Part shown: positions 9 through 62,430 of the stretch, one piece after another
Layout of the letters: each line of letters begins with the position of its first letter
How positions within the stretch are numbered: position 1 is the first letter of the stretch
NCBI GenBank assembly: GCA_026392035.1
Contig: JAPLCX010000083.1
Location: 4,597 to 68,596, forward strand
DNA from: Candidatus Auribacterota bacterium
Lineage (GTDB): Bacteria > Auribacterota > Tritonobacteria > UBA1439
DNA length: 64,000 bases
Reading direction: 5' to 3'
Position numbers and translations under genes: made by a program
Notes under the pieces: model-generated
Database searches by the model: none
What the model was told of the DNA's origin: nothing
Seen by the model: only the letters and a program-made list of their open reading frames with translations

Positions 9-911
9 TCACTCGAAATGCGAGAGGGGCATGAACTCGCGGTAGCGCTCGCCTATCGCTTTCTCCGTGAGCGTCTTCATCCTGTCGAGGCTGAAATCCT
101 CGACGTTGAACGAGGCCATCACGCTCCCGTAGATCACCGCCTGGCGCATGGTATTCCATTCAGTGTTCCCCGCCCGCGACAGGTGCCCCATGAATCCGCC
201 GGCGAATGTATCGCCTGCCCCCGTGGGATCAATGATGTTTTCCATCGGGTACGCGGGCGCCGCGAAGATGTGGCCGTCGCCGAACAGCAGCGCGCCATGC
301 TCGCCCTTCTTGATGACCACCCACTCCGGACCCCACTCCCTGATCATCCTTCCCGCACGCACGAGGTTCGGCTGGCGCGTGAGCTGCCTCGCCTCCGCCT
401 CATTGAGCACGGCCACATCCACCATGCCCAGGAGCTTGAGGAGGGTATCCCGCTTCCCGTCGATCCAGAAATTCATGGTATCGCACGCCACGAGCCTAGG
501 CCGCTCGATCTGCCCGAGCACTTCCATCTGGAGATCGGGATCGATGTTGGCGAGAAAAACGCACTCGCTCTTCTTGTATTCCTCGGGGATCTCGGGCTTG
601 AAATTTTGGAACACGTTGAGGCATGTCGAGTGGGTTATCGCGGTGTTCATGTCATATCCGTAGGCTCCCACCCAGTGGAATGTCTCGCCGTCCAGCACCC
701 GTAACCCCCGCGTATCTATCCCGCGGGATTTGAGGAGCTCGATGTGCTCACGGGGGAAATCCTTGCCCACCACCGCGACCATATTGACCCGGTCAAAAAA
801 GCTCGCCGAGAAAGAGAAGAACGTCGCTGAACCGCCGAGCGTGCGCTCCCGCTTGCCGAACGGGGTTTCCACCGTATCGAGGGCCACGGAACCGACCACG
901 AGAATGCTCAC
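9..911 (-). CDS. PfkB-family carbohydrate kinase (ribokinase-like; possibly heptose-7-phosphate kinase HldA)
   Basis: 300-aa ORF with C-terminal DPTGAGDTFAGGF anion-hole motif typical of PfkB/ribokinase kinases; start overlaps thiC stop by 4 nt. Confidence 0.75.
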   Translation of the reverse strand: MSILVVGSVALDTVETPFGKRERTLGGSATFFSFSASFFDRVNMVAVVGKDFPREHIELLKSRGIDTRGLRVLDGETFHWVGAYGYDMNTAITHSTCLNVFQNFKPEIPEEYKKSECVFLANIDPDLQMEVLGQIERPRLVACDTMNFWIDGKRDTLLKLLGMVDVAVLNEAEARQLTRQPNLVRAGRMIREWGPEWVVIKKGEHGALLFGDGHIFAAPAYPMENIIDPTGAGDTFAGGFMGHLSRAGNTEWNTMRQAVIYGSVMASFNVEDFSLDRMKTLTEKAIGERYREFMPLSHFE

Positions 912-2287
912 TCAACCTCCTCAGTTTGGGATTTGGGACCCGCCTGAGGCGGGTAAATTTGGGACTTGCCCGCCGAATGGCGGGTTTGGGATTTTTTAAA
1001 ATATTCCTCGACCAGCTTTATCGAGCAGTAGTCACCGCACATGGTGCAGACATCCGAGCTGCGCGAAGGGCTCGCTGCACGTATCGATTCGGCCCTGCGC
1101 GTGTCCAGGGCGAGCGCAATCATCCCCTCCCAGTCCCTCTGCTTGCGTTTTTTTGCCATGGCCAGGTCCCAGCCGGCCGCCCCGCGGATGCCCTTGGCGA
1201 TGTCCGCCGCGTGCGCCGCGATTCTCGTCGTGATGACTCCCTCCCTCACATCCGCGGGCCCCGGCAGGCCAAGGTGCTCCGTGGAGGTTACGTAGCAGAG
1301 GTAATCCGCGCCGGCACTCGCCGCGATCGCTCCGCCGATGGCCGAGGTGATGTGATCATACCCGGGGGCCACATCGGTCACCAGCGGCCCGAGGACGTAG
1401 AACGGCGCGCCATGACAGACCTCTTTCTCGAGCTTGACATTTTCCTCGATCTTCCCGATCGGCACGTGCCCCGGTCCCTCAATCATCACCTGCACGCCCT
1501 CCCTCAGCGCGTACGTTTGGAGCTCCCCCAGCGTGATCAATTCCTGAAACTGCGCCCGGTCGTTGGCGTCCGCGAGGCAGCCGGGCCTCATCCCGTCGCC
1601 GAGGCTCAGCGTCATGTCATGCTGCGCGGCGAGCTCGACCAGGCGGCTGAAATCGCTGTAGAGCGGGTTCTCTTTCCCATTGGCGATCATCCATGTCACA
1701 AGAAACGCTCCCCCGCGGCTCACCACGTCCAGGATGCGCCCCTCTCGCTTGAGCCGCTCGAGGGCCGAAAGGGTCACGCCGCAGTGGACAGTGATGAAAT
1801 CCACTCCATCCACCCCATGCTCCTCGATGGCGGCGAACATCTCGTCAGCGGTCATGCTCCCGATGCCGCCCCCGGCCCTGGCGCGACGTACCGCCGCCTG
1901 ATATATGGGGACCGTCCCGAGCGGAACGGTGCACGCGGCGAGCAGTTTCCTCCGTATCCCGGGCAGGTCGCCCCCCGTGGAGAGATCCATCACCGTATCG
2001 GCGAGCGCGTCGAGGGCCGCGTCGAGCTTCTCGCGTTCACGCGCCTCGTCCGCAACATCCATCGAGGTGCCGATGTTCGCGTTGACCTTCGTCCTCAACC
2101 CCTTCCCGATTCCGCACTGTCGGGCGATCCGATGGCGTCGGTTGTGGGGTATTACCACCGTGCCCCCGGCGACGGATTCCATGAGGGCCTCTGGAGGCAC
2201 ACCCTCGATCTCGGCCACCGCCCGCACCTCCTCGGTCAGATTGCCGCGCTTCGCCTCGACAACCTGCAGGATTTTTTTGTTCTTCAT
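908..2287 (-). CDS. thiC: phosphomethylpyrimidine synthase ThiC
   Basis: 459-aa ORF, ThiC-like along its length, with CTMCGDYCS cysteine cluster near the C-terminus; the last ~27 codons are encoded by a TTTGGGA repeat element. Confidence 0.9.
   Translation of the reverse strand: MKNKKILQVVEAKRGNLTEEVRAVAEIEGVPPEALMESVAGGTVVIPHNRRHRIARQCGIGKGLRTKVNANIGTSMDVADEAREREKLDAALDALADTVMDLSTGGDLPGIRRKLLAACTVPLGTVPIYQAAVRRARAGGGIGSMTADEMFAAIEEHGVDGVDFITVHCGVTLSALERLKREGRILDVVSRGGAFLVTWMIANGKENPLYSDFSRLVELAAQHDMTLSLGDGMRPGCLADANDRAQFQELITLGELQTYALREGVQVMIEGPGHVPIGKIEENVKLEKEVCHGAPFYVLGPLVTDVAPGYDHITSAIGGAIAASAGADYLCYVTSTEHLGLPGPADVREGVITTRIAAHAADIAKGIRGAAGWDLAMAKKRKQRDWEGMIALALDTRRAESIRAASPSRSSDVCTMCGDYCSIKLVEEYFKKSQTRHSAGKSQIYPPQAGPKSQTEEVE
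925..997. repeat. TTTGGGA heptamer repeat element, copy A (two heptamers, GC hairpin, heptamer, GC hairpin, heptamer)
   Basis: tttgggatttggga-cccgcctgaggcggg-...-tttggga-cttgcccgccgaatggcggg-tttggga; provides the last codons and stop of thiC. Confidence 0.7.
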
Positions 2288-2296
2288 ATATCAATT

Positions 2297-2347
2297 TTCA
2301 CCACGGACCTGCCTGCCGGCGGGCAGGGACACGGAGTGCACGGAGAA
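2297..2347. repeat. CACGGAG-repeat / CCTGCCTGCCGGC(A/G)GGCAGG palindrome element, copy 1
   Basis: ttcaccacgg-acctgcctgccggcgggcaggga-cacggag-tgcacggag, between thiE stop and thiC start. Confidence 0.65.
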
Positions 2348-2400
2348 GTAGAATTTAAGATGTTTTTATCTCCGCGTCATTCGTATCTCCGTGGTGCATA

Positions 2401-3686: not shown

Positions 3687-3888
3687 GGGTTTATTACTCG
3701 GACACATGAACGCGCCTAGATAGCTGGAACACGATGATGCGGGTAACAGCGTGGCCACTCGTAGATTACAATCCCCGATGTCCCCCCTGTATCGTAGCGC
3801 ACCCTTAAGGGTGCGCTACAGACTTAAACGATGTGAGAGCCCGCGCCTATCGATTCATGATCCGGGGCACCACCGGACATTTCTGCTT

Positions 3889-4455
3889 TTAGAAGAGCGC
3901 CTTCTCGATCAGGGAGCAGAGTATATGACCGATCGCCCCATGCACCTCCTGGATGCGGGGAGAGACGTCTGAGGGGACCATGACACAGAGATCGGCGGCC
4001 CGCGCGAGCCTTCCGCCGCCCTTGCCGCTCAAGGCGATCACCTTCATTTTCAATCGCCTGGCCTGCTCGACAGCCTTGAGGATGTTGGGAGAGTTGCCGC
4101 TCGTGGATATCGCGAGCAAGACGTCCCCCTCCCTGCCGTGGGCCAGCACCTGGCGCGCGAATATTTCCTCGTACCCGTAGTCGTTCCCGATGGCGGTGAG
4201 CACCGAGGTGTCAGTGGTCAGGGCGATGCAGCTCAGGGGCTCCCGCTCCTTGAGGAACCGCCCCACCAGCTCACCCGCCAGATGCTGTGCGTCAGCGGCG
4301 CTGCCTCCATTCCCGCAGATGAGCAGCGTGCCGTTCTGACGGTACGATTCGATTACGAGTTCGGCCATCCGGCAGATGGTATCAGCCGATTCCCGCGCCA
4401 CCCTCGACGCGAGAGAAGCCGACTCCTCGAGCTGTGCCGCTATGTCCTTTTTCAT
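3889..4455 (-). CDS. gmhA: phosphoheptose isomerase (SIS domain)
   Basis: LICGNGGSAADAQH and ISTSGNSPN SIS-domain motifs; ORF extends to 4485, start probably MKKDIAAQLEE (Met-11). Confidence 0.8.
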   Translation of the reverse strand: MKKDIAAQLEESASLASRVARESADTICRMAELVIESYRQNGTLLICGNGGSAADAQHLAGELVGRFLKEREPLSCIALTTDTSVLTAIGNDYGYEEIFARQVLAHGREGDVLLAISTSGNSPNILKAVEQARRLKMKVIALSGKGGGRLARAADLCVMVPSDVSPRIQEVHGAIGHILCSLIEKALF

Positions 4456-4456
4456 C

Positions 4457-5482
4457 TCAGATGAAGAACATGCGCGCTTCGTCATAGAGCTCCCTTGGCA
4501 CCGTCCTCAGCTTTGCAACCGCGTCAGCGAGGGGGACGGACACCACCTCGTTACCCCTCAGGCTCACCATCCTGCCGAACGCGCCCTGCATGATCAACCC
4601 GACGGCGTGAACCCCGAAGCGGAGGCCGATGAATCGGTCGAGGGCGGTCGGGCTGCCTCCGCGCTGGAGGTGCCCCAGGACCACGCAGCGGGTCTCGTAC
4701 CCCGTGCGCTTCTCTATCTCCCATGCCAACCGCTCACCGATGCCGCCGAGCCTGACATGGCCAAAGGCGTCCCGTTCCTCGGTCTGCAGCGCCACGCTAC
4801 CCCCGAGCTCAGCCCCCTCCGCGACGGCCACAATGCTGAAATCGGCGTAGTGCTCGTGCCGCTCCCTGAGCACGCGGCAGAGATCATCCAGATCGGCCTT
4901 GACCTCGGGGATGAGGATGTAGCTGGCGGCGCCCGCCAGGCCTGCCCAGATGGTGATCCACCCCGCGTGCCGCCCCATAATCTCAACAACCATCACGCGC
5001 TCGTGTGATTCCGCGGTTGTCTTCAAGCGGTCGCACGCCTCCATGGCGGTGTTGACGGCGGTGTCAAAACCGAATGTCCTGTCCGTCCCCGACAGGTCGT
5101 TGTCGATTGTCTTGGGCACGCCCACCGCGGGAAGGCCTGCCTCAGACAACCTCTTGGCGGCCCCGAGCGTGTCATCGCCGCCAACCGCCACGAGGGCGTG
5201 AAGCCCCATCTTCTTGAAGTTGTCCATTACCAGGCGAATCTGATCATCGCTCTCGCATGGATTGGTGCGTGATGTACGGAGGATTGTCCCGCCCTGGCAC
5301 ACAATGCCGAGGATGTCCTTCATCGAAAGCTCAACCCGGTCACACTCCAGCATGCCTCGCCAGCCGTGCCGTATCCCCAGAACCCTGTACCCCTCAACCG
5401 TGGCTCTGCGCACCACCCCCGCGATCACCGCATTCAATCCGGGGCAGTCGCCGCCCCCCGTCAGAATCCCTATTGTCTTCAT
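4457..5482 (-). CDS. pfkA: 6-phosphofructokinase
   Basis: GILTGGGDCPGLN, GGDDTL and MGRHAGW motifs; ORF extends to 5575, start likely Met-32 (MKTIGILTGGG). Confidence 0.85.
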   Translation of the reverse strand: MKTIGILTGGGDCPGLNAVIAGVVRRATVEGYRVLGIRHGWRGMLECDRVELSMKDILGIVCQGGTILRTSRTNPCESDDQIRLVMDNFKKMGLHALVAVGGDDTLGAAKRLSEAGLPAVGVPKTIDNDLSGTDRTFGFDTAVNTAMEACDRLKTTAESHERVMVVEIMGRHAGWITIWAGLAGAASYILIPEVKADLDDLCRVLRERHEHYADFSIVAVAEGAELGGSVALQTEERDAFGHVRLGGIGERLAWEIEKRTGYETRCVVLGHLQRGGSPTALDRFIGLRFGVHAVGLIMQGAFGRMVSLRGNEVVSVPLADAVAKLRTVPRELYDEARMFFI

Positions 5483-21001: not shown

Positions 21002-21101
21002 ATCCGCAATCTTGCTATTCAGCAAATGCTTTCTCCCGCGGATAAACGCCTCTTTGAAAGATACTCTGATAATCCGCGATTATCCGCGCCTATCCGCGGA
21101 T
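21002..21101. promoter_or_regulatory. ATCCGCG half-site array (three sites phased at 10 bp, the last palindromic ATCCGCGGAT, plus a mirrored CGCGGAT) in the radC–trm112 intergenic region
   Basis: ATCCGCG at 21072, 21082, 21092; CCGCGGAT at 21036; ATCCGCA at 21002. Confidence 0.45.
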
Positions 21102-21105
21102 TAAA

Positions 21106-21777: not shown

Positions 21778-21781
21778 TTTT

Positions 21782-21911
21782 GAAAAAGGGGACAGGCTAC
21801 TTTTTCTGTTGAGTTTATGCATCGGTAGTGCTTTTCATCTGTGTGAGAGAGTGATTTTTTCTTTCCTTTTGATTCTTATCCGAGGTGAAAAAGTAGCCTG
21901 TCCCCTTTTTC
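21782..21911. repeat. perfect 25-bp inverted repeat (gaaaaaggggacaggctactttttc / gaaaaagtagcctgtcccctttttc) enclosing an 80-bp AT-rich loop
   Basis: Arms at 21782-21806 and 21887-21911; the loop holds the rfbD stop codon and the motif CACACAGATGAAAAGCAC (minus-strand reading). Confidence 0.75.
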
Positions 21912-22750
21912 ATGTACTCCCCTACCGCCTCTCTCCATTGCCGCATCGGGGCGCCAGTCAGCCCGGCGTAGCGTGAGCCATCGAGCGCCGAGAACGGCGG
22001 CCGCGGGGCGGGGCGAGAGAGGCGTTCGCTCGTGATCTCGTTCACCCTCACACCGCTGATCCCCCCGAGTTCGAGGATCGCGCGGGCGTACTCGCACCAG
22101 GAACAGACGCCGCTATTCGTCACATTGACGATGCCCCGGCAGTCTGTCATGAGCAGCGAGCCGATTGCCTTGGCGAGATCGCGCGCGTAGGTGGGGCAAC
22201 CGCGCTGGTCTCCCACCACCTCAAGGACAGGCTGCCTGGCCGCGGCCCTGAGTATCGTGTCAACAAAGTTCTTCCCGTGCAGGCCGAAGAGCCACGAGGT
22301 TCTGACAATGATATAGTCGTCGAGGCCGCGCCGGACCGCCTGCTCCCCGGCCAGTTTCGATTTCCCGTATGCGCTCTGGGGATTTGTCGCCGCGTCCTCT
22401 CGGTAGGGCTTTTTCGCGCGGCCGTCGAAGACGTAGTCCGTGCTCAGGTAAATCATCCTGGCGCAGGCGGCGCGGCAGGCCGCGGCGACGTACCCCGCCC
22501 CCTGCGCGTTAACGGCGAACGCACCGTCCGGGTCACCCTCGCACCCATCGACATCCGTGCGCGCGGCCGCGTTGACGACAGCATGCGGCCTGAGCTCCCT
22601 GATATACGCCTCCGTGCCCTCTCTATCGGTGATATCAACCTCGCCGATGTCAACGCCGGTGAGCTCCCACGCGGGCGAGAGAATATCCATCAGCTCGTGC
22701 CCGAGCATGCCCGCTGCCCCGATCACCAGGATTCTCTCATGTGTGGCCAT
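21815..22750 (-). CDS. rfbD: dTDP-4-dehydrorhamnose reductase
   Basis: ILVIGAAGMLG Rossmann start and YGKSK catalytic motif; the C-terminal ~30 codons run into the inverted-repeat element. Confidence 0.85.
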   Translation of the reverse strand: MATHERILVIGAAGMLGHELMDILSPAWELTGVDIGEVDITDREGTEAYIRELRPHAVVNAAARTDVDGCEGDPDGAFAVNAQGAGYVAAACRAACARMIYLSTDYVFDGRAKKPYREDAATNPQSAYGKSKLAGEQAVRRGLDDYIIVRTSWLFGLHGKNFVDTILRAAARQPVLEVVGDQRGCPTYARDLAKAIGSLLMTDCRGIVNVTNSGVCSWCEYARAILELGGISGVRVNEITSERLSRPAPRPPFSALDGSRYAGLTGAPMRQWREAVGEYMKKGTGYFFTSDKNQKERKNHSLTQMKSTTDA

Positions 22751-22880
22751 TGTTCAACCCTGAAGGCAATCTCTTGATCCGAACCGGCGAACCGGTGTAT
22801 CGGCGAAAAGGAACGTTGATCATTGAACTGTGTATGCTATTGCGCCGTCTCGCCGATTCGCCCTGTCGCCGTTTCGCGGG

Positions 22881-24771: not shown

Positions 24772-25227
24772 CTACTTCTCCTTGATGCCCCACTCATAGG
24801 GAATGTCGTTCTCATGAGGGGGGATCCGGTACTCATCAGGTTCGCTCCTGTTGTAGCATCGCGTGGGCAAATTGATCAGGAGACAGGGTTCACCCCCCAC
24901 CGTTTTATAGCCGTGCATGACGAGTTCGGGGATACGGATGATAATCCTGTTGTGCTCACCCACGAAAAACTCATTCACCTCACCATGCGTGGGGGAGCCC
25001 TCACGCCCGTCATAGGCCACGATCTTTGCCATCCCCTTGACCACCGCGATGAAGTCGACCTGCTTCTTGTGATAATGCCACGCGCGCACCACGCCGGGAT
25101 AATTCAGGGATACGTAGAGCTGGCCAAACCCCTCGAAGAACTCTTCATCGCAGCGCAGGATCTCCTGCAGGCACCCCCGCTCATCGGCATGCGGCCTCAA
25201 CTCTTTGATTTTAACTCCGCTGATCAT
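24772..25227 (-). CDS. rfbC: dTDP-4-dehydrorhamnose 3,5-epimerase (cupin)
   Basis: 151 aa cupin with ...AWHYHKKQVDF... motif; completes the rfbCABD set. Confidence 0.85.
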   Translation of the reverse strand: MISGVKIKELRPHADERGCLQEILRCDEEFFEGFGQLYVSLNYPGVVRAWHYHKKQVDFIAVVKGMAKIVAYDGREGSPTHGEVNEFFVGEHNRIIIRIPELVMHGYKTVGGEPCLLINLPTRCYNRSEPDEYRIPPHENDIPYEWGIKEK

Positions 25228-25354
25228 TGCGTCTCTCCTTTCAGGTTACAGCTCACAAAATGGAAGAGAATCAGAGTTATTATATCACGATGCCGCGGAG
25301 ATTCAGCACTGCTTTTCCCCTCACCCGGTAAGGGGTCACTTATAGAGGGGGGCC

Positions 25355-25451
25355 ACGGATCCCGCTAAGCGGGACGGATTATGACGGATATTCACAGATG
25401 AAAAGAAAGCTTCATCTGCGGCCATCCGTGTGGTTATCCGTGAAAATCCGT
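25355..25451. promoter_or_regulatory. symmetric array of 10-bp-phased ACGGAT/ACAGAT half-sites mirrored by CATCTG/ATCCGT half-sites (putative regulator operator) upstream of rfbC
   Basis: ACGGAT at 25355, 25374, 25384; ACAGATGAA at 25394; then TTCATCTG at 25412 and ATCCGT at 25424, 25436, 25446. Confidence 0.5.
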
Positions 25452-25463
25452 GGCGAACATCAT

Positions 25464-26516
25464 TTAGAGCATCCCGCCGATGAGGCTCCATGACATCACG
25501 AGGGCGCGTATGACCAGGTCAAGTGCCAGGGCTTGATCTGCGTGGATTCCCAGCGCGCCAAACAATTTGCAATACGCGACCTCCCCCGTCCCCCAGCCCG
25601 AGGGGGTAACGGGTATCGCGCATATTGTCCCGATGAGAGGAATGAGGAGGAGGAGGTGTCCATAGGTCACCTCCGCCATGCCGAGCATCTTTGCGATCCG
25701 GTAGACAATGGCGATCGTGACGAGCTGCAATACGAGCGAAATGAGCAGCGCCCCGCAGAGTGCGGATTTGTGCGTGCGATATGTGTACAGCGCGCGGTAG
25801 AGCCGGCGGACATTTTCCTCAAAGGGGAGCCGGCTGAGCGCTCTTTTCGCGAATGGAATTCTCCTGAGGATATCCTTACTGTAGAGCACCAGGAGACCGG
25901 CGCAGGTCACGAGAAAGAACGCGAGAAACAGACATGACGCCGCGCGGAGGCGGGGATTACGGCCATTGATCATAATGCCAGCGAAGCCAATGCCGAAGAA
26001 CGTCAGGAATCCGACAGTCCTGTCTGCGATGACCGAGATGAGGGCGCCCTCCCCCCTCCCCGGAGCTGCCCGCGCTAGGTAATACGCCTTGAGCACGTCG
26101 CCGCCCATCGAGCCGAGCATGATGTTGTTGAAAAAGAGGCCGATAAAGCAGTATCGCAAGATATTGATATACCGAACGCCGATATCCTGGACCTTCACGA
26201 GCATCTGCCAGCGCCAGGCGCTCATCAGCCACAGGACTCCATAGGCCGCCCCGCAGGCAAGAATGCTCCCCCGGTTCACGCCGCGGAGATAGCCGGCGAG
26301 CTCATGCAGGTCCACCTTCCTGTAGATAACGAAGGCGACTATCCCTGCCGCCAGCCCGATCTTACAAAGCATGAGAAGCTTATTCCGCAGCGATATGTTC
26401 ATATGGTGGACCAGGCACATCGATGTGCGAGCTGGCTGAGTGCGAAACTTTGTCGTGATACGCCTCGGCGCTTGATTCTGAGCTGTCGTTTGTGATAGTG
26501 TATTACTGTATAACAA
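25464..26516 (-). CDS. flippase-like membrane protein (lysyl-phosphatidylglycerol synthase TM-region/UPF0104 family)
   Basis: Multi-TM protein with ...NNIMLGSMGGDVLKAYYLA... motif of this family; start codon uncertain (no clear RBS). Confidence 0.55.
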   Translation of the reverse strand: MLYSNTLSQTTAQNQAPRRITTKFRTQPARTSMCLVHHMNISLRNKLLMLCKIGLAAGIVAFVIYRKVDLHELAGYLRGVNRGSILACGAAYGVLWLMSAWRWQMLVKVQDIGVRYINILRYCFIGLFFNNIMLGSMGGDVLKAYYLARAAPGRGEGALISVIADRTVGFLTFFGIGFAGIMINGRNPRLRAASCLFLAFFLVTCAGLLVLYSKDILRRIPFAKRALSRLPFEENVRRLYRALYTYRTHKSALCGALLISLVLQLVTIAIVYRIAKMLGMAEVTYGHLLLLIPLIGTICAIPVTPSGWGTGEVAYCKLFGALGIHADQALALDLVIRALVMSWSLIGGML

Positions 26517-32811: not shown

Positions 32812-34440
32812 TCACTTTGCGACTCTGTAGATACTCACTCCTCCCCCATCGTAAATCTTTTCGAGATAACCGGCTGTCTCCAGGCTGAAGGGGCCTTTCA
32901 TGCGTTCGAAATTTCCAAAGTAGATATAACTGATGCCGTTCGCCTTTAAAAATTCTCGCTTCTCTCTCTCGGCCCTGGGACCGTAGAGCACCCAGTCCGC
33001 CAGCCGTGCTTTATCAGTGAACCTCAATGTCTCAGACCAGTGCCCCACATACACCCTGTTTCCGGTGTAGGCAGGCAGATAGAGGCCGCTCTTGTATGAA
33101 GAAATGACTGCAGCATCCTCATTATTGTTCTCCTTCATCCATCTCATTGCCGCGACATCTCCCTCATACAGGTAGAACTCGAGCGGCTTGGTTTTCATAT
33201 CGGTGATGCAGCTCATGACCTTGACGATGTTGGAAGGGGTGGTCATCAGAAAGATGAGCACGAGGATAATCGCCTCCACGTGACGTCTCTTCCCCGTGTC
33301 GAGGGCTGTCACCGGGATAAATATGCCAGAGCACGCGGGCAGGAGGTACCTGAATGTCCCCCGCGCCGCAAGGATGCACAGCGGCACGTGGACGGCCGTT
33401 GAGAGCCTCCGCTGGAAGGAGAGTGGCGCGTAGAGGAGTATTGCCACAGCGATTACCCATACCGCAAGGAGCCAATCGTCGCGATTTCCCCTCCTAAAAA
33501 TCCACGCCAGCTCAGGCATGGCGATGAAGAGCACGATGCCGTAGCCGATGACGTAGCTCAACGGGTGCGGGGACAAAAACTTCTCTTTCGACCACTCGAT
33601 GAATACGGGCTCCGTCCTAAAGAGATAAAGCATGTAGAGGAAGGCGGGCAGCGCGACGAGAGCGATAACCGCAGAGGAAGCAAGGACGCGCGCGGCGTCA
33701 TGCCGGTACTTGAAATACACCGTGATGCAATACGTCACCATAACTACCGTGATGGTCACCATGTCGACCGTGTGCACGAAGCTGAGGGCAACGAGCGAGA
33801 GCCCCCCATAGATACTGTTGACCAGTAGCCTCCCCCTGAGCGCCCTGAGCAAGAAGCCGAACCCGAGCAGCATCAGGGCCGCGGTGAGCGCGAATTGGGG
33901 GAATGAGAAAATCGTTTCAAACGTGATCGTCTCCGCGATCCAGTAGTCTATCGGGACGATGTTGAGCCTCGAGAAAAGCATCTCCCACTGGTGATCGGGG
34001 ATCACCCAGCAGAGCCCCGACGAGAACGCGCACAGGGCGAAGGCAAAGGTGCGCTCCCGTTGATCTTCGATAAAAAAGCCGATAAACCAATAGATCACAT
34101 AAAAGAGCAGCAGGGTGTAAAAAACCAGCGCGCCGTAGTAGACCGCGAGGGGGCTCAAACGCGAATAACGCGCCACGATTCCAAGCGTCCACGTGAACGG
34201 ATTGAAAAAAAGCGGCCGCTGTTCCTCCAGCGTAAAATCGCGCCTGATGAAAAATTTTCCCTCGGACGCCTGCTGGATGCGGGAGAGGTAGCTGTTCTGA
34301 TCATAGGGATGGTCGGGGAATCCCATGTACACCATCCCCGGAAGAGTATTGAAGTATCCCCAGGTATACGGGATGAACACAATCGCCACGACCGCGATTG
34401 CAATCGCCCTGACCACACATGCGTGTTTATCTGCGCTCAT
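32812..34440 (-). CDS. polytopic membrane protein, putative GT-C glycosyltransferase
   Basis: 542 aa, about 12 TM helices plus a C-terminal soluble domain; first gene of the GT-C block; upstream ATC(C/T)GTG array. Confidence 0.5.
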   Translation of the reverse strand: MSADKHACVVRAIAIAVVAIVFIPYTWGYFNTLPGMVYMGFPDHPYDQNSYLSRIQQASEGKFFIRRDFTLEEQRPLFFNPFTWTLGIVARYSRLSPLAVYYGALVFYTLLLFYVIYWFIGFFIEDQRERTFAFALCAFSSGLCWVIPDHQWEMLFSRLNIVPIDYWIAETITFETIFSFPQFALTAALMLLGFGFLLRALRGRLLVNSIYGGLSLVALSFVHTVDMVTITVVMVTYCITVYFKYRHDAARVLASSAVIALVALPAFLYMLYLFRTEPVFIEWSKEKFLSPHPLSYVIGYGIVLFIAMPELAWIFRRGNRDDWLLAVWVIAVAILLYAPLSFQRRLSTAVHVPLCILAARGTFRYLLPACSGIFIPVTALDTGKRRHVEAIILVLIFLMTTPSNIVKVMSCITDMKTKPLEFYLYEGDVAAMRWMKENNNEDAAVISSYKSGLYLPAYTGNRVYVGHWSETLRFTDKARLADWVLYGPRAEREKREFLKANGISYIYFGNFERMKGPFSLETAGYLEKIYDGGGVSIYRVAK

Positions 34441-34531
34441 CTGCGGCTATTGTGGACCAATGAAGAAATTTTACTCAGTATCTTCTGCGACTATTTCCAA
34501 GACAATCCGTGTCTATCTGTGTTCATCTGTG
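34428..34531. promoter_or_regulatory. ATC(C/T)GTG half-site array (three sites phased at 10 bp) upstream of and over the start of the first GT-C gene
   Basis: ATCCGTG 34505, ATCTGTG 34515, ATCTGTG 34525; ATCTGCG at 34428 and 34439. Confidence 0.45.
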
Positions 34532-34542
34532 GCTAATACTAA

Positions 34543-35682
34543 TCATCGAATGTAATCATTTTTTCTCAGATAGTCAATCATCGCATCAGCAACAACCCTG
34601 TGGCCATAGCTATTCCAGTGCCCTACTTTCCTATGCACCACCGGGCGAATCCTGCCATGGAGACAGGGTCCGAGATCCACATACCCTATCCTTGCTCCCT
34701 GGCAGAAGCGCTTGAGAAGCGGTGAATAGACTGAGTGTATGTCAGCGATTATGAAGCGGGCGCTATTTTCACGGCAGAGATCGTCAATCCGTTTGAGGAG
34801 CTTTTCTGTCAATGCTAACTCACGCGCCAGTTTCTCCGGGTCGCCTTCTCCCGCAACAGGTTCCGATCCAGCCCATACAGGGTGCGCGAGTCGGAATGTG
34901 AGCCAGTTATACAGGTGGGAGTGGGTAAGAAGTTCTCTCTTCAGATAATCCACCGACCAGTGCGATTCGGACTCTCTACCGGGGATGCCATAGCTCTGGG
35001 CGAGCAGTCTCTTTTTTGCCCAGTATGCCGGCTCGAAGGGAACAGGCGTATTCTTCAACACCAGCCGGTCCCCCTCCCCGACAAAGAACGGCTTCGGCTG
35101 CATCCCGTCTATCACCTTTGCGTTATTCCCCTCAACCACGTCGTTCCGGTCGAAGAGGAGGATCACGATGTCCGGGCGATACTTAAGGCCTTCGGTTTCC
35201 AGGACGAGAAGCTCCTGATCCGTGGAGTAACCGGCTTGGGCGAGGTTGATCACCTCCCATCCGGGGAGCCGCCGCTCCAGGATATCTGAAAATCTCTCCA
35301 ACGCCTCAACCCCCCAGCCCCACGCCGTCGAATCGCCGAGGACGACAATCCTCTTTTTGCCCCACTTTTCGTACGATCGCTCCCGCTCCCTGAATCCTCG
35401 CGAGTTATTCACGATTCTGTGCTTAAAATCGGGGAGGATGAACCACGTCTCAAGGTTCGGCACACCGGCATAGCCGAGGAGTGGATCGTATTGGTCGGGG
35501 AACGAATGAATTGTATCAGAGGTATAATCCGGGAATGGCGCGAAGAGGCGCAGGACTATCTCTGCTGCCGCCAGCGCAATCACAACGGCACCGAGCAGGG
35601 CGCACAGCCTCTTCGCCAGAGCAATCTTACCGCCAGTATCCATAATCCCGCCCGTGTCCACCTCGCAGGTGGATTTGAACAC
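34543..35682 (-). CDS. SGNH/GDSL-hydrolase family protein with N-terminal membrane anchor
   Basis: IVVLGDSTAWGWG block-I serine motif; start may be Met-14. Confidence 0.65.
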   Translation of the reverse strand: MFKSTCEVDTGGIMDTGGKIALAKRLCALLGAVVIALAAAEIVLRLFAPFPDYTSDTIHSFPDQYDPLLGYAGVPNLETWFILPDFKHRIVNNSRGFRERERSYEKWGKKRIVVLGDSTAWGWGVEALERFSDILERRLPGWEVINLAQAGYSTDQELLVLETEGLKYRPDIVILLFDRNDVVEGNNAKVIDGMQPKPFFVGEGDRLVLKNTPVPFEPAYWAKKRLLAQSYGIPGRESESHWSVDYLKRELLTHSHLYNWLTFRLAHPVWAGSEPVAGEGDPEKLARELALTEKLLKRIDDLCRENSARFIIADIHSVYSPLLKRFCQGARIGYVDLGPCLHGRIRPVVHRKVGHWNSYGHRVVADAMIDYLRKNDYIR

Positions 35683-37293: not shown

Positions 37294-38372
37294 GGGTCAA
37301 ACCCGAAGTTCTAAGTTATTGACTCCATTATTTTTCCTACGCGCTCTTCTAGCTGCTTGTTCTGCTTCAGCTCTATCTGAACCTTCTTATGAACCTGGTT
37401 GATTCGCTCACCGCTAACCCCACCCAATTCTTGGCCCATTTCTTTAAGACTCATAATCTTGAAATTAGTTCGATACGTTATATCGAGTAACACTTGCCGG
37501 GCTTCCTTATGTCTCGATCTACTCTTGCTAATTTCTTCCGCTTTGACTCCATATTCTTTTGCTACCGCTTCAGCCAATTCCTTAATTGGAATCGCCTTCT
37601 TAATCTCTTTTAAATGCGAGTAATCATAAACCAGCAATTCTCTTTGTTTCAAGATATTCGTAGAAACCCAGGTCACAAAATTATCAGTTCCCAACAAAGC
37701 ATTTGCTCTTGCTTTTTCCAATGGATTGTTTAGATCCAATGCTATCCCCTTCAAAACAAAATCCCTATACGCCGCCCTGCACAGCTTATCATCCCCTCCC
37801 ATATAGGCCAATACCATGTCATAACGCATAAAATCATCCCGTTCTCTTGACCTAATATAACCAAGAAAACTGCTCCAATAATACCCCCCCAATATACCAA
37901 TCTTTTTTTCAAGCGGAAGATTGCGATACTTCTCTAACCGCACAGGATTTAAATGAATGTAGCGGCTCAGTTCCAACAAGTATTCATCTGCTTCGATTAG
38001 AATAGCCTTATATCGACCTTGATAGAGATGCCCCGCGCGGTGATGGCGCAGATTGTAATACGTGATATAGGTAGTGTTAAAGCGCTGCATAAATCTACTT
38101 AGATTTGCATCTAATGTCCTCAACAAAAAATGGAAATGGTTACCCATTAATACATAACCGTGCACTTCTATATTGAATAATGCTGCGCTTTCCCTTAGAA
38201 TCTGAAGAAATTTGTTCCGATCTTTATCATCCCTAAAGATATTTGCCCTCTGGTTTCCTCGAGAGGTTACATGATACCATGCATTGTGATATTCTATTCT
38301 CAATGGTCTGGCCATGTTTAAAGAATATCATCAATGAGCACTATTGTCAATTTAGAACTTCGGGTTTGACCC
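37294..38372. mobile_element. compact transposase cassette bounded by perfect 21-bp inverted repeats (gggtcaaacccgaagttctaa / ttagaacttcgggtttgaccc)
   Basis: Repeats at 37294-37314 and 38352-38372 exactly enclose the AT-rich transposase gene, between two divergent GT39 genes. Confidence 0.6.
37311..38315 (-). CDS. IS200/IS605-like Y1 (HUH) transposase with C-terminal DnaA-type HTH (RAYT-like)
   Basis: HUH motif EVHGYVLMGNHFHFLL and catalytic-Tyr region, plus a C-terminal Bac_DnaA_C-like helix-turn-helix; markedly AT-rich. Confidence 0.75.
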   Translation of the reverse strand: MARPLRIEYHNAWYHVTSRGNQRANIFRDDKDRNKFLQILRESAALFNIEVHGYVLMGNHFHFLLRTLDANLSRFMQRFNTTYITYYNLRHHRAGHLYQGRYKAILIEADEYLLELSRYIHLNPVRLEKYRNLPLEKKIGILGGYYWSSFLGYIRSRERDDFMRYDMVLAYMGGDDKLCRAAYRDFVLKGIALDLNNPLEKARANALLGTDNFVTWVSTNILKQRELLVYDYSHLKEIKKAIPIKELAEAVAKEYGVKAEEISKSRSRHKEARQVLLDITYRTNFKIMSLKEMGQELGGVSGERINQVHKKVQIELKQNKQLEERVGKIMESIT

Positions 38373-57210: not shown

Positions 57211-57368
57211 TTCACCACGGAGACACGGAGAACACGGAGAACAAGAGATTATTACAAAGGGCAAAAGAACCGAATGAATAACATACCTGGAAGCTCCACC
57301 ACAGAGGGTATGAGACTGCTTTCATAAGCCATATCCTTACTCCGTGCTCTCCGTGCCTCCGTGGTAAA
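57211..57368. repeat. inverted pair of CACGGAG-repeat arms flanking about 100 bp (MITE-like or long stem)
   Basis: Left ttcaccacggagacacggagaacacggaga at 57211-57241; right tccgtgctctccgtgcctccgtggtaaa at 57341-57368 is its near reverse complement. Confidence 0.6.
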
Positions 57369-58983: not shown

Positions 58984-58999
58984 AAAACATTACACGATC

Positions 59000-59050
59000 T
59001 TCTCCGTGCCCTCCGTGCCCCTGCCTGCCGGCAGGCAGGTCCGTGGTGAA
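59000..59050. repeat. CACGGAG-repeat / CCTGCCTGCCGGCAGGCAGG palindrome element, copy 3 (inverted relative to copy 1)
   Basis: tctccgtgccctccgtgcc-cctgcctgccggcaggcagg-tccgtggtgaa. Confidence 0.65.
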
Positions 59051-59128
59051 AACCAATTAAACAAAAGCGCACGGGCGCTCCATTCCTCCACGCCCGCGCG
59101 CCTCGCGTGCTGCGCCTCTTCAACAACC

Positions 59129-60735: not shown

Positions 60736-60749
60736 ATAACCCTCCGGAT

Positions 60750-60802
60750 AAATCCCAAATCCCAAACCTTAAATCCCAAATCCAAAATCCCAAATCCCAA
60801 TA
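60750..60802. repeat. TTTGGGA heptamer repeat element, copy C (seven tandem heptamers in the prfB 5' leader)
   Basis: Minus strand reads ATTGGGA TTTGGGA TTTTGGA TTTGGGA TTTAAGG TTTGGGA TTTGGGA, ending 15 nt before the prfB ATG. Confidence 0.75.
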
Positions 60803-60838
60803 TAGCAACTGCATCTCCAGGCGGCAATCGTCACATAA

Positions 60839-62320: not shown

Positions 62321-62324
62321 AAAA

Positions 62325-62430
62325 GTTCAAACGGTTTAAACCCCTGCACTCAGGTTCAAACCGTTCAAATTGTTGAAATTGTTAAAGTCGTTCACCGTAT
62401 CGAATCAAACGGCTCCAACGACTTAAACGA
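62325..62430. repeat. degenerate 9-bp tandem repeat TT(C/A)AA(A/C)N(C/T)G, about 8 copies, in the secA–lnt intergenic region
   Basis: ttcaaacgg tttaaaccc ... ttcaaaccg ttcaaattg ttgaaattg ttaaagtcg ttcaccg ... tcaaacggc ... ttaaacgat. Confidence 0.5.

Follow-up and report, generated by a model that had tools for sequence, protein, structure and literature searches.

A quasi-palindromic array of short repeats lies at positions 25352-25454 of a 64,000-nucleotide stretch of DNA from a Candidatus Auribacterota bacterium (contig JAPLCX010000083.1; the whole stretch is called the window hereafter), upstream of an rfbC-like gene. This element is very probably one copy of a dispersed family of intergenic repeats, which exists in the window, in relatives, in metagenomes and in phages. 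The best explanation as a whole is that the element is such a copy and acts at a gene end in the manner of repetitive extragenic palindromic (REP) sequences and bacterial interspersed mosaic elements (BIMEs), a reading to which we give a probability of about 0.5; a terminator or insulator mechanism at the element is a more tentative proposal. The first-pass annotation of the window had taken the array for the operator of a cooperatively binding regulator serving rfbC and other envelope genes, and its description of the repeats proved largely accurate.

Architecture of the array

The element has the following parts:

25352-25454, no strand: entire quasi-palindromic element with 4+4 units and GCCACGGAT/ATCCGTGGC as the outer pair
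25354-25402, plus strand: left arm, with CACGGAT at 25354, GACGGAT at 25373, GACGGAT at 25383 and CACAGATGAA at 25393-25402
25361-25373, no strand: mini-hairpin CCCGCTAAGCGGG, 13 nt, after the first unit, folding as a side branch
25403-25410, no strand: central loop or spacer AAGAAAGC, 8 nt, from sequence and fold
25411-25459, plus strand: right arm, with TTCATCTGCG, ATCCGTG at 25424, 25436 and 25446, then the outer end GCGAA

The hexamer ACGGAT occurs on the plus strand at 25355, 25374 and 25384 and on the minus strand (as ATCCGT) at 25424, 25436 and 25446, accompanied by a CAGATGAA pair at 25395-25402 (plus) and 25411-25418 (minus). All six hexamers and the pair were found where the first-pass annotation had placed them, with one exception: the left-hand motif ACAGATGAA does start at 25394, but its right-hand counterpart TTCATCTG starts at 25411, not 25412. 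The full sequence reads GCCACGGAT-CCCGCTAAGCGGG-ACGGAT-TATG-ACGGAT-ATT-CACAGATGAA-AAGAAAGC-TTCATCTGCG-GCC-ATCCGTG-TGGTT-ATCCGTG-AAA-ATCCGTGGC. The mirror symmetry ascribed to it is real in that the halves are reverse complements and the outermost GCCACGGAT/ATCCGTGGC pair is perfect, but it is imperfect elsewhere, with arm complementarity of 79-100%. A 10-bp phase throughout, also ascribed to it, holds in part: the start-to-start intervals are 19, 10 and 10 bp on the left and 13, 12 and 10 bp on the right (the 13 becomes 10 if the ATCTGCG at 25414 is taken as the starting point), so five of six fall within 10-13 bp, whereas the sixth is 19 bp because the mini-hairpin is inserted there. An analogous GC hairpin, CCTGCCTGCCGGCGGGCAGG, occupies the same place in copies of a second class described below (2307-2326 and 59020-59039).

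Counted over the entire window, the hexamer shows no over-representation (33 occurrences observed vs 37 +/- 5.5 in shuffles), and the six copies within 97 bp, where about 0.05 would be expected, are therefore a local cluster (Poisson P ~1e-11 by our own arithmetic). The fold of the element is an interrupted rod that has a single side branch; the RNA fold energy is -53.3 kcal/mol for the minus (transcribed) strand (z -6.45 vs shuffles) and -52.1 kcal/mol for the plus strand (z -5.10), and the single-stranded DNA fold energy is -27.5 (z -5.20). The earlier judgement that this is no chance repeat is thereby upheld, and the paired form has strong hairpin potential.

Copies within the window and in relatives

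An arm of the family consists of 3-4 tandem units of ~10 bp that read 5'-CRCRGAT-(G/T/A)AA on one strand and ATCYGYG-Ttc on the other, with the outer end ATCYGYG-G-Y-T-A-A (GGYTAA). An arm may stand alone or face an inverted partner, the outer ends then pointing outward; the rfbC element is a 4+4 pair with a small GC hairpin in one arm. At least seven arms or pairs are present in the 64 kb of the window, all of them intergenic, with both singlets and doublets among them:

21030-21105, no strand: copy built of CGCGGAT/ATCCGCG units, its outer end directly beside the stop codon of radC (21106); family profile match at 21070-21105, E 2e-7
34422-34538 (34422-34449 and 34504-34538), plus strand: two co-oriented single arms, profile E 7.4e-6 and 2.8e-10
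2295-2396, no strand: class II copy with CACGGAG/CTCCGTG units, period 8-9, filling the thiE-thiC gap
57213-57365, no strand: class II inverted pair, 3+3 CACGGAG units with a ~85 nt spacer, after a class II aminoacyl-tRNA synthetase gene
58999-59052, plus strand: unpaired class II arm, dispersed copy of the one at 2295-2348

Of the two co-oriented arms, the second (34504-34538) has its outer end 4 nt from the stop codon of the gene at 34543-35682 on the minus strand; among the window copies are some that follow a GDSL-lipase gene or adjoin FtsX-type genes. ATCYGYG is found 5.1 times per kb of intergenic DNA and 0.71 times per kb of coding DNA. The recurrence of the ATCYGYG/CACAGATGAA vocabulary in other intergenic regions, which the first-pass annotation had pointed out, is thus confirmed, and with a 7-fold depletion in coding DNA the motif is not an artefact of base composition. 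The two class II arms at 2295-2348 and 58999-59052 are 94% identical over 54 nt, and the similarity stops exactly at the arm borders; since the identity is confined to exactly one arm, the arms are copied as discrete modules. Relatives use the same unit vocabulary and have, in addition, palindromic arrays of unrelated 7-8 nt units. The pair at 57213-57365 has a fold energy of -75.4 kcal/mol on the sense strand vs -62.1 on the antisense strand, and 11 of 17 elements from the window and relatives fold better in the sense orientation.

At thiC (window 908-2400), the 113-nt thiE-thiC gap is filled by the class II element, which ends 8 nt before the annotated start; a thiamine pyrophosphate riboswitch for thiC had no match in the Rfam scan of the window.

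Copies in metagenomes and phages

Metagenome contigs of JGI and viral contigs of IMG/VR were scanned with the pattern ATCYGYG-NNN-ATCYGYG-NNN-ATCYGYG; the family-wide counts given here and below (pairing, period, flanks, gene context) come from the scan matches listed rather than from all copies. This three-unit pattern was present in at least 120 JGI metagenome stretches, where ~15 chance matches would be expected (a rough estimate, for an assumed collection size), and in at least 120 IMG/VR stretches. A profile hidden Markov model (nhmmer), built from 98 metagenome arms only and containing no window sequence, recovered the arms at 34504-34538, 21070-21105 and 34422-34449 with the E-values listed above, and it matched the rfbC array at 25430-25459 (E 4.3e-5), again in the right arm at 25412-25430 (E 0.014) and, marginally, in the left arm at 25376-25400 on the minus strand (E 0.053). 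By the match of this independent profile at 25430-25459, the rfbC array is a statistically supported member of the family.

Paired copies have mostly three units per arm, a period of 10 bp in 109 of 114 intervals and a spacer of 4-235 nt. Conservation extends beyond the search pattern to a T after the inner units and to G-Y-T-A-A after the outer unit, and partner arms that do not themselves fit the pattern keep the A, T, C, G and G, only the two Y positions varying. An inverted partner lies inward of 96 of the 234 seed arms and outward of 5, and ~57% of arms are single. The R/Y positions covary between the arms of a pair (118/164 Watson-Crick vs 82 +/- 6.6 in shuffles), the complementarity reaches 2-8 nt past the units, and units are homogenised within an arm (52/82 unit pairs identical).

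Two of the viral contigs, judged by their terminase, Gam and MuA/MuB-like proteins, are Mu-like phages; each has 8-10 arrays in the orientation of its genes. That compact phage genomes have many copies argues that the arms either do something or spread very efficiently. In these phages (loci L245/L279 and L285/L220; IMG/VR contigs 3300031885_000054 and 3300009285_002914) some arrays form part of tandem super-repeats of 47 bp, and arrays of class I have class II neighbours (CTCTGYG, period 9).

Position relative to genes

The arms are polar and lie just downstream of the stop codon of the gene on the CRCRGAT-reading strand. When genes of at least 70 codons were counted, with the mirror-image position as control, a stop codon was found on that strand at most 15 nt before the outer end in 73/219 arms vs 26/219 in the control; the stop-to-outer-end distances peak at 1-10 nt, single arms alone have the same bias (45 vs 18), and the distance to the next start codon is flat, being even over 0-60 nt. 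By our reading of the gene map, all seven arms or pairs of the window obey this rule. In the rfbC element the two arms turn their GAT ends towards each other, 10 nt separate the outer end (25454) from the TAA (25464-25466), and the right arm, read on the transcribed minus strand, has its CRCRGAT units (here CACGGAT) directly 3' of that stop codon. In the phages, arrays are found between a stop codon and the next ribosome-binding site. The metagenome copies comprise 27 in tandem, 12 in convergent and 7 in divergent gene contexts among 46 that could be classified, counts that are suggestive only, as open reading frames were called crudely.

The rfbC region and its orthologues

The features flanking the element are:

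25464-26420, minus strand: gene for an LPG_synthase_TM family membrane protein (Pfam PF03706, E 1e-43), with the TAA stop at 25464-25466
25279-25317, minus strand: promoter-like block GAAAAGCAGTGCTGAATC...CGTGATATAAT, with an extended -10 at 25279-25288 and a -35-like region at 25301-25306
25235-25242, minus strand: ribosome-binding site GAAAGGAG of the rfbC-like gene, invariant in 7/7 orthologous regions
24772-25227, minus strand: rfbC-like cupin gene (dTDP-4-dehydrorhamnose 3,5-epimerase family; Pfam PF00908)

The element thus lies between two minus-strand genes, 10 nt past the TAA of the LPG-synthase-like gene (the start codon of which is uncertain: 26516, 26420 or 26402) and 125 nt before the start of the rfbC-like gene, which heads a run continued by rmlA, rmlB, rmlD and radC. 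It sits ~46 bp or more upstream of the -35 region. A simple sigma-70 scan did not call the promoter-like block at 25279-25317, because its -35 is weak. The best genome matches of the rfbC-like protein are in uncultured metagenome-assembled genomes (MAGs) at 88% identity and in Auribacterota MAGs at 81% and 78%.

In an alignment of seven regions between the LPG-synthase-like and the rfbC-like gene (L-numbers denote the compared loci), all seven have the same extended -10 (CGTGrTATAaT) and the same GAAAGGAG ribosome-binding site, and most keep the GAAAAGCAGTGCTGAATC block, whereas the array is not conserved together with this promoter. L087 (89% protein identity) keeps the CACGGAT outer arms around a different core (z -4.8), L007 (88%) has the inner GCCGCAGATGAA...CCATCTGCGGC hairpin only (z -3.5), in L089 (85%) the units are degenerate and without a stable fold (z +0.4), and L008, L009 and L010 (77-81%) have no array between the genes, their upstream open reading frame extending to the promoter. 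Since promoter and ribosome-binding site stay invariant while the array varies or vanishes, a conserved rfbC operator, as the first-pass annotation would have it, is not supported. Nor does the array look like a site private to rfbC, placed as it is next to the upstream stop codon and away from the -35 region, in a family whose arms are anchored to stops and not to starts. The envelope regulon fails as well, with copies at thiE-thiC, after the aminoacyl-tRNA synthetase, radC and GDSL-lipase genes and in at least 240 metagenome and phage stretches; a factor binding the units, if one exists, would be a genome-wide rather than a local regulator.

The LPG-synthase-like protein of the window is ~15 codons shorter at its C-terminus than its orthologues (25464-25510 compared with L007 3740-3785, L089 3100-3156 and L009 3850-3910), and the array occupies the place where the orthologues encode the C-terminal tail of LPG_synthase_TM.

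All 12 Logan short-read contigs (k = 31) of the strain, from several runs, match the window at 100% identity and break off at 25355, where the stem has its base; a contig from another species stops at the homologous position (L001-L006, L088). The window has no repeated 30-mers of the element, and the contig break therefore points either to a sequencing or assembly failure caused by the hairpin or to population heterogeneity.

Transposases and repeat mobility

The window encodes, at 37311-38315 on the minus strand, a RAYT-like protein (REP-associated tyrosine transposase) with an N-terminal Y1_Tnp domain and a C-terminal helix-turn-helix like DnaA domain IV (Pfam Y1_Tnp, 1e-12; NCBIfam REP_Tyr_transpos, 1e-16, below the model cut-off; DnaA C-terminus, 1e-6). 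RAYT-like proteins with a DnaA domain are of the 'TIRYT' or subclass 2.1 type (PMC3733652, PMC6006769). The gene is flanked by perfect 24-nt inverted repeats, GGGGTCAAACCCGAAGTTCTAAGTT (GGGGTCAA-type), which are unrelated to the arrays and are not found elsewhere in the window. Of more than 7,500 homologues, those in three other taxa have retained end repeats of the GGGGTCA(A/G)ACC type. Gene and repeats together (37294-38372) form a 'TIRtron' in the sense of Di Nocera 2013. A link between this protein and the arrays, suggested by the six of nine bases that the units share with DnaA boxes, was rejected as unsupported, the gene's own repeats being unrelated and kept across phyla and two of three homologue loci being without arrays; among array-bearing metagenome loci, a Y1 transposase gene was seen at 1 of 80.

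The family shares with REPs and REPINs (REP doublets forming hairpins) that it is high-copy and intergenic and comprises singlets and inverted doublets. It was not assigned to them, as its arms are direct arrays that are not self-complementary and have no GTAG or CGTC tag, and the RAYT-like gene is not flanked by decamer arrays. A miniature inverted-repeat transposable element (MITE) in the strict sense was likewise rejected: inverted ends are present, a target-site duplication is absent.

Other short repeats in the window and at related loci

A perfect 11-bp stem with a GTAG head, GTAGCGCACCC-TTAA-GGGTGCGCTAC, at 3795-3826 is a classical GTAG-type REP signature, and similar GTAG hairpins occur within the spacers of some metagenome copies of the decamer family (L121, L154). 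A perfect 26-nt inverted repeat, TGAAAAAGGGGACAGGCTACTTTTTC (21781-21806 and 21887-21912), with a GGGGWSAS-type motif inside, encloses an 80-nt segment at the 3' end of rmlD and the start of radC; a single arm is present in the relative L087, and the pair looks like a small insertion derived from TIRtron-type ends.

Several other arrays use units unrelated to the decamer. Between rmlB and rmlD lies a CGGCGAA/TTCGCCG palindromic array (22775-22880), and because this gap leaves no room for a promoter before rmlD, transcription must cross it. A unit of the same type stands at the orthologous place in L009 (6508-6625; rfbC-like protein 78% identical), and L007 has AAATGAC units in the corresponding part. 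An (AAATCCC)n tandem array adjoins the RF-1 gene (60749-60804), with the same unit in L007 (7487-7517); the GGGATTT repeats on its transcribed strand could form a G-quadruplex. TTCAAAC/GTTTGAA-type arrays occupy 62321-62430. A metagenome contig with decamer arrays (L123) also has TTCAACG arrays (~200-290), so several unit families travel together.

Loci of unrelated phyla, from Syntrophaceae and Anaerolineae (L012, L041, L045, L060, L061, L068, L077, L080; ~3885-4514) have heptamer arrays directly flanking rfbC-like genes, the units being GGCTTCG, ACGTTTC, ACGCAAT, GATTTCG and others. In L047, a MAG labelled Proteobacteria, three direct arrays (484-510, 2792-2819 and 3823-3848) with the units ATCTGCG, CGCAGAT and CACAGAG lie within 4 kb of a polysaccharide locus, one of them ~30 nt upstream of a UDP-glucose-dehydrogenase-like start.

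Possible action at gene ends and alternative explanations

As a REP/BIME-type gene-end element, the rfbC copy would fold, through its paired arms, into a long stem-loop, either of the transcript or of unwound DNA. Such a structure could halt or delay transcription running on past the LPG-synthase-like gene, or shield the 3' end of its transcript, and might thereby insulate the conserved rfbC promoter ~46 bp further on. That the units are polar, regularly spaced and sequence-specific is most simply accounted for if they are recognised by a putative trans-acting factor, which may either spread the arms or use them, and which may read duplex DNA, single-stranded DNA or RNA. We consider it rather doubtful that the arrays are the sites of a conserved oligomeric nucleic-acid-binding factor marking gene ends in uncultivated lineages and Mu-like phages; if they are, they would constitute a new sequence-specific boundary signal for termination, insulation or processing, distinct from hairpin-plus-U terminators and from REPs, and inverted pairs such as the rfbC element would be its bidirectional form.

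A number of observations weigh against gene-end action of this type. At the rfbC element no U-tract follows the stem and a terminator scan was negative, and across the family the T-runs beside arms are independent of the direction of incoming transcription; an intrinsic (Rho-independent) terminator was accordingly rejected. The ~57% of arms that are single cannot form the stem, and single arms in phages come so close to the ribosome-binding site and start codon that follow, within a few bases, that they cannot be efficient terminators there. The weak trend towards better folding on the sense strand seen in the window and relatives is absent from a larger set (n=32; sense minus antisense +1.8 kcal/mol), in which sense-strand mismatches show no G:U excess either (G:U 23 vs A:C 28); this argues against selection on an RNA stem, a candidate that we rejected. 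As to spread, no mobilising enzyme could be tied to the array family at the window RAYT-like gene, its homologue loci or the 80 metagenome loci, and none of 34 paired copies has a target-site duplication (TTAA or YTAA), the flanks being inverted complements and not direct repeats.

The main rival explanation, itself rather unlikely, is that an abundant oligomeric protein reads the arms as duplex DNA throughout the genome, as a polar roadblock, a nucleoid protein or an MraZ-like ring, the hairpin being incidental. In MraZ operators a box of 5-7 nt is directly repeated at least three times with a 10-bp period, and oriC carries two arrays of DnaA sites in opposite orientation. Such a protein would account for the strict 10-bp period, for the positions conserved within and just beyond the units, for single arms that are still oriented with genes, for G:U and A:C mismatches without strand asymmetry, and for the many co-oriented copies in compact Mu-like phages, where junk DNA is unlikely. 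It accounts poorly for class II arms (CTCYGYG), which have a period of 8-9 bp and hence are not helically phased, for the covariation of R/Y positions between arms, for complementarity past the units and for so variable an inter-arm spacer, and it comes without a candidate protein.

It is improbable, in our view, that the family is a neutral palindromic microsatellite, in which slippage expands the units and template switching keeps the arms complementary without any function. Both these genomes and other phyla commonly have tandem arrays of unrelated 7-10 nt units, units are homogenised within arms, and the L089 orthologue has decayed; heptamer simple-sequence repeats are widespread in bacteria, according to Mrazek 2007 as cited in PMC4679880. 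What a neutral origin leaves unexplained is the identical unit, flanks and three-unit format on unrelated contigs and phages, the strict polarity (partners 96 inward vs 5 outward), the anchoring of arms to stop codons and the 94% identity of dispersed arm copies.

We give equally little credence to a signal at the RNA level, where an RNA-binding protein or nuclease would act on CRCRGAU after the stop codon in intercistronic processing, 3'-end protection or translational coupling. The sense strand does read CRCRGAU after stop codons, the phage arrays do lie ahead of the next ribosome-binding site, and the 11 of 17 elements that fold better in sense would fit; half of the spacers yield a stop codon on the CRCRGAU strand, vs an estimated ~23% for random spacers, and an analogy exists in the TAACTGA heptamer repeats upstream of start codons (PMC4679880). 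Yet the larger sets lack a sense-strand bias, next-start distances are even over 0-60 nt, and Rfam offers no family: no match with E up to 1 was obtained in 24900-25800 and none at the gathering score in the whole window, and the arrays of 13 other loci were unmatched bar one chance microRNA-type hairpin far below threshold. CsrA-type sites were rejected, since the G of GGA falls on the R position, which varies freely, and so was a three-frame stop cassette, the stop enrichment being mild (all frames blocked in 16/99 arms vs 8.1 +/- 2.5 in shuffles). An invertible promoter was discarded too, because the central spacer is just 8 nt and the inverted repeats differ among copies. ATCTGCGGTT is like the 3' strand of 16S rRNA helix 45 (CUGCGGUU), a post-hoc 8-mer match that could be chance.

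The weakest explanation, and a very unlikely one, is the local operator, with a cooperative oligomeric transcription factor on eight half-sites of one helix face controlling rfbC and an envelope regulon: the 10-12 bp spacing with dyad symmetry, the intergenic enrichment of the motif, the several window copies inside the polysaccharide gene cluster and the three direct arrays in the polysaccharide locus of L047, from another phylum, agree with it, but the array is absent, shortened or decayed where the orthologous promoter is invariant, abuts the upstream stop, lies ~46 bp or more upstream of the -35 region, and has copies beside thiC, aminoacyl-tRNA synthetase, radC and FtsX-type genes, between convergent genes in 12 of the 46 classifiable metagenome copies (crude gene calls) and, by the hundreds, in phage and metagenome contigs.

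Implications

If the family is what it seems to be, a large group of uncultivated bacteria (Auribacterota and taxa of soil, peat and sediment) and their phages share a short, polar, stop-anchored signal that is absent from the databases used, which would give a handle on the punctuation of transcription units or on the spread of small DNA modules in these organisms, and which could aid in linking phages to hosts in metagenomes. The breaks of all short-read contigs of the strain at the stem base are a warning to annotators and assemblers. An array with the look of a textbook operator can be a dispersed repeat, and inferring a regulon from a single window is therefore unsafe.

Comparison with known systems

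The array family, by kind one of dispersed intergenic repeats, is apparently undescribed; literature searches on the repeat sequence and on decamer or heptamer palindromic arrays yielded nothing specific, although the family may be described in literature beyond their reach. None of the known kinds compared here fits all tested features.

Multi-site operators and related arrays (MraZ boxes, omega-repressor heptads, oriC DnaA-box arrays, attP arm-type sites) are alike in having at least three direct repeats with a ~10-bp period, sometimes as two opposed arrays. A genome has only a few such sites, in promoters or origins, whereas decamer arrays follow stop codons at ~one per 10 kb, and class II arms are not helically phased. 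The unit TTATCCGTG agrees with the DnaA box TTATCCACA in its first six bases, but TTATCCGTG, AAATCCGTG and CCATCCGTG have GTG at positions 7-9, not ACA, and a DnaA-box cluster was rejected (the consensus as quoted in PMC6006769 is TTWTNCACA). The outer ends TTAAC.../...GTTAA resemble integron attC core sites (RYYYAAC ... GTTRRRY) only loosely, no search for integrase genes having been made, and the array copies lie among housekeeping genes, not in integron-type cassette arrays.

DNA uptake sequences (the DUS of Neisseria and the USS of Haemophilus) are over-represented motifs of ~10 nt that often form inverted pairs as terminator-like hairpins after genes, and they are also present in phages of the same hosts. 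They have one copy per arm, as opposed to the triple tandem arrays here, and are common inside genes, in contrast to the coding density of the decamer motif (0.71/kb coding vs 5.1/kb intergenic), and this identity was rejected; we know of no stop-codon polarity described for them.

Simple-sequence repeats, the cyanobacterial heptamers of the STRR (short tandemly repeated repetitive) type and the TAACTGA repeats of Beggiatoaceae, for which a translational or post-transcriptional role has been proposed (PMC4679880), are also tandem short intergenic units of sporadic lineages, and heptamer arrays occur in the window itself (60749-60804, 62321-62430) and in relatives. The decamer unit differs in having 7 conserved and 3 semi-conserved bases with a 10-bp period, a copy number fixed at about three, a defined outer end, frequent inverted pairing and anchoring to the upstream stop rather than the downstream start.

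MITEs with subterminal repeats and multi-site transposon ends (Tn7, Mu) share inverted ends with several regular direct sites, a variable internal segment, solitary ends and dispersed near-identical arm copies. The decamer family, by contrast, lacks target-site duplications and yielded no cognate transposase, its complementarity extends past the conserved units into element-specific sequence, and its units differ at the R/Y positions between copies of one genome.

RAYT-mobilised REPs, BIMEs and REPINs differ in that a decamer arm consists of three or four 10-bp units in tandem and is not itself a palindrome, lacks the GTAG/CGTC tag and does not flank the RAYT-like gene, which has GGGGTCAA-type repeats instead; REPs are moreover species-specific, whereas the decamer unit recurs on very different contigs and in phages. 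The likeness is nevertheless extensive: both are short, dense, strictly intergenic and often directly after stop codons, both occur as singlets and inverted doublets with a variable spacer, a fixed polarity and no target-site duplication, the doublet forms a long hairpin in both, and the window does encode a RAYT-like protein.

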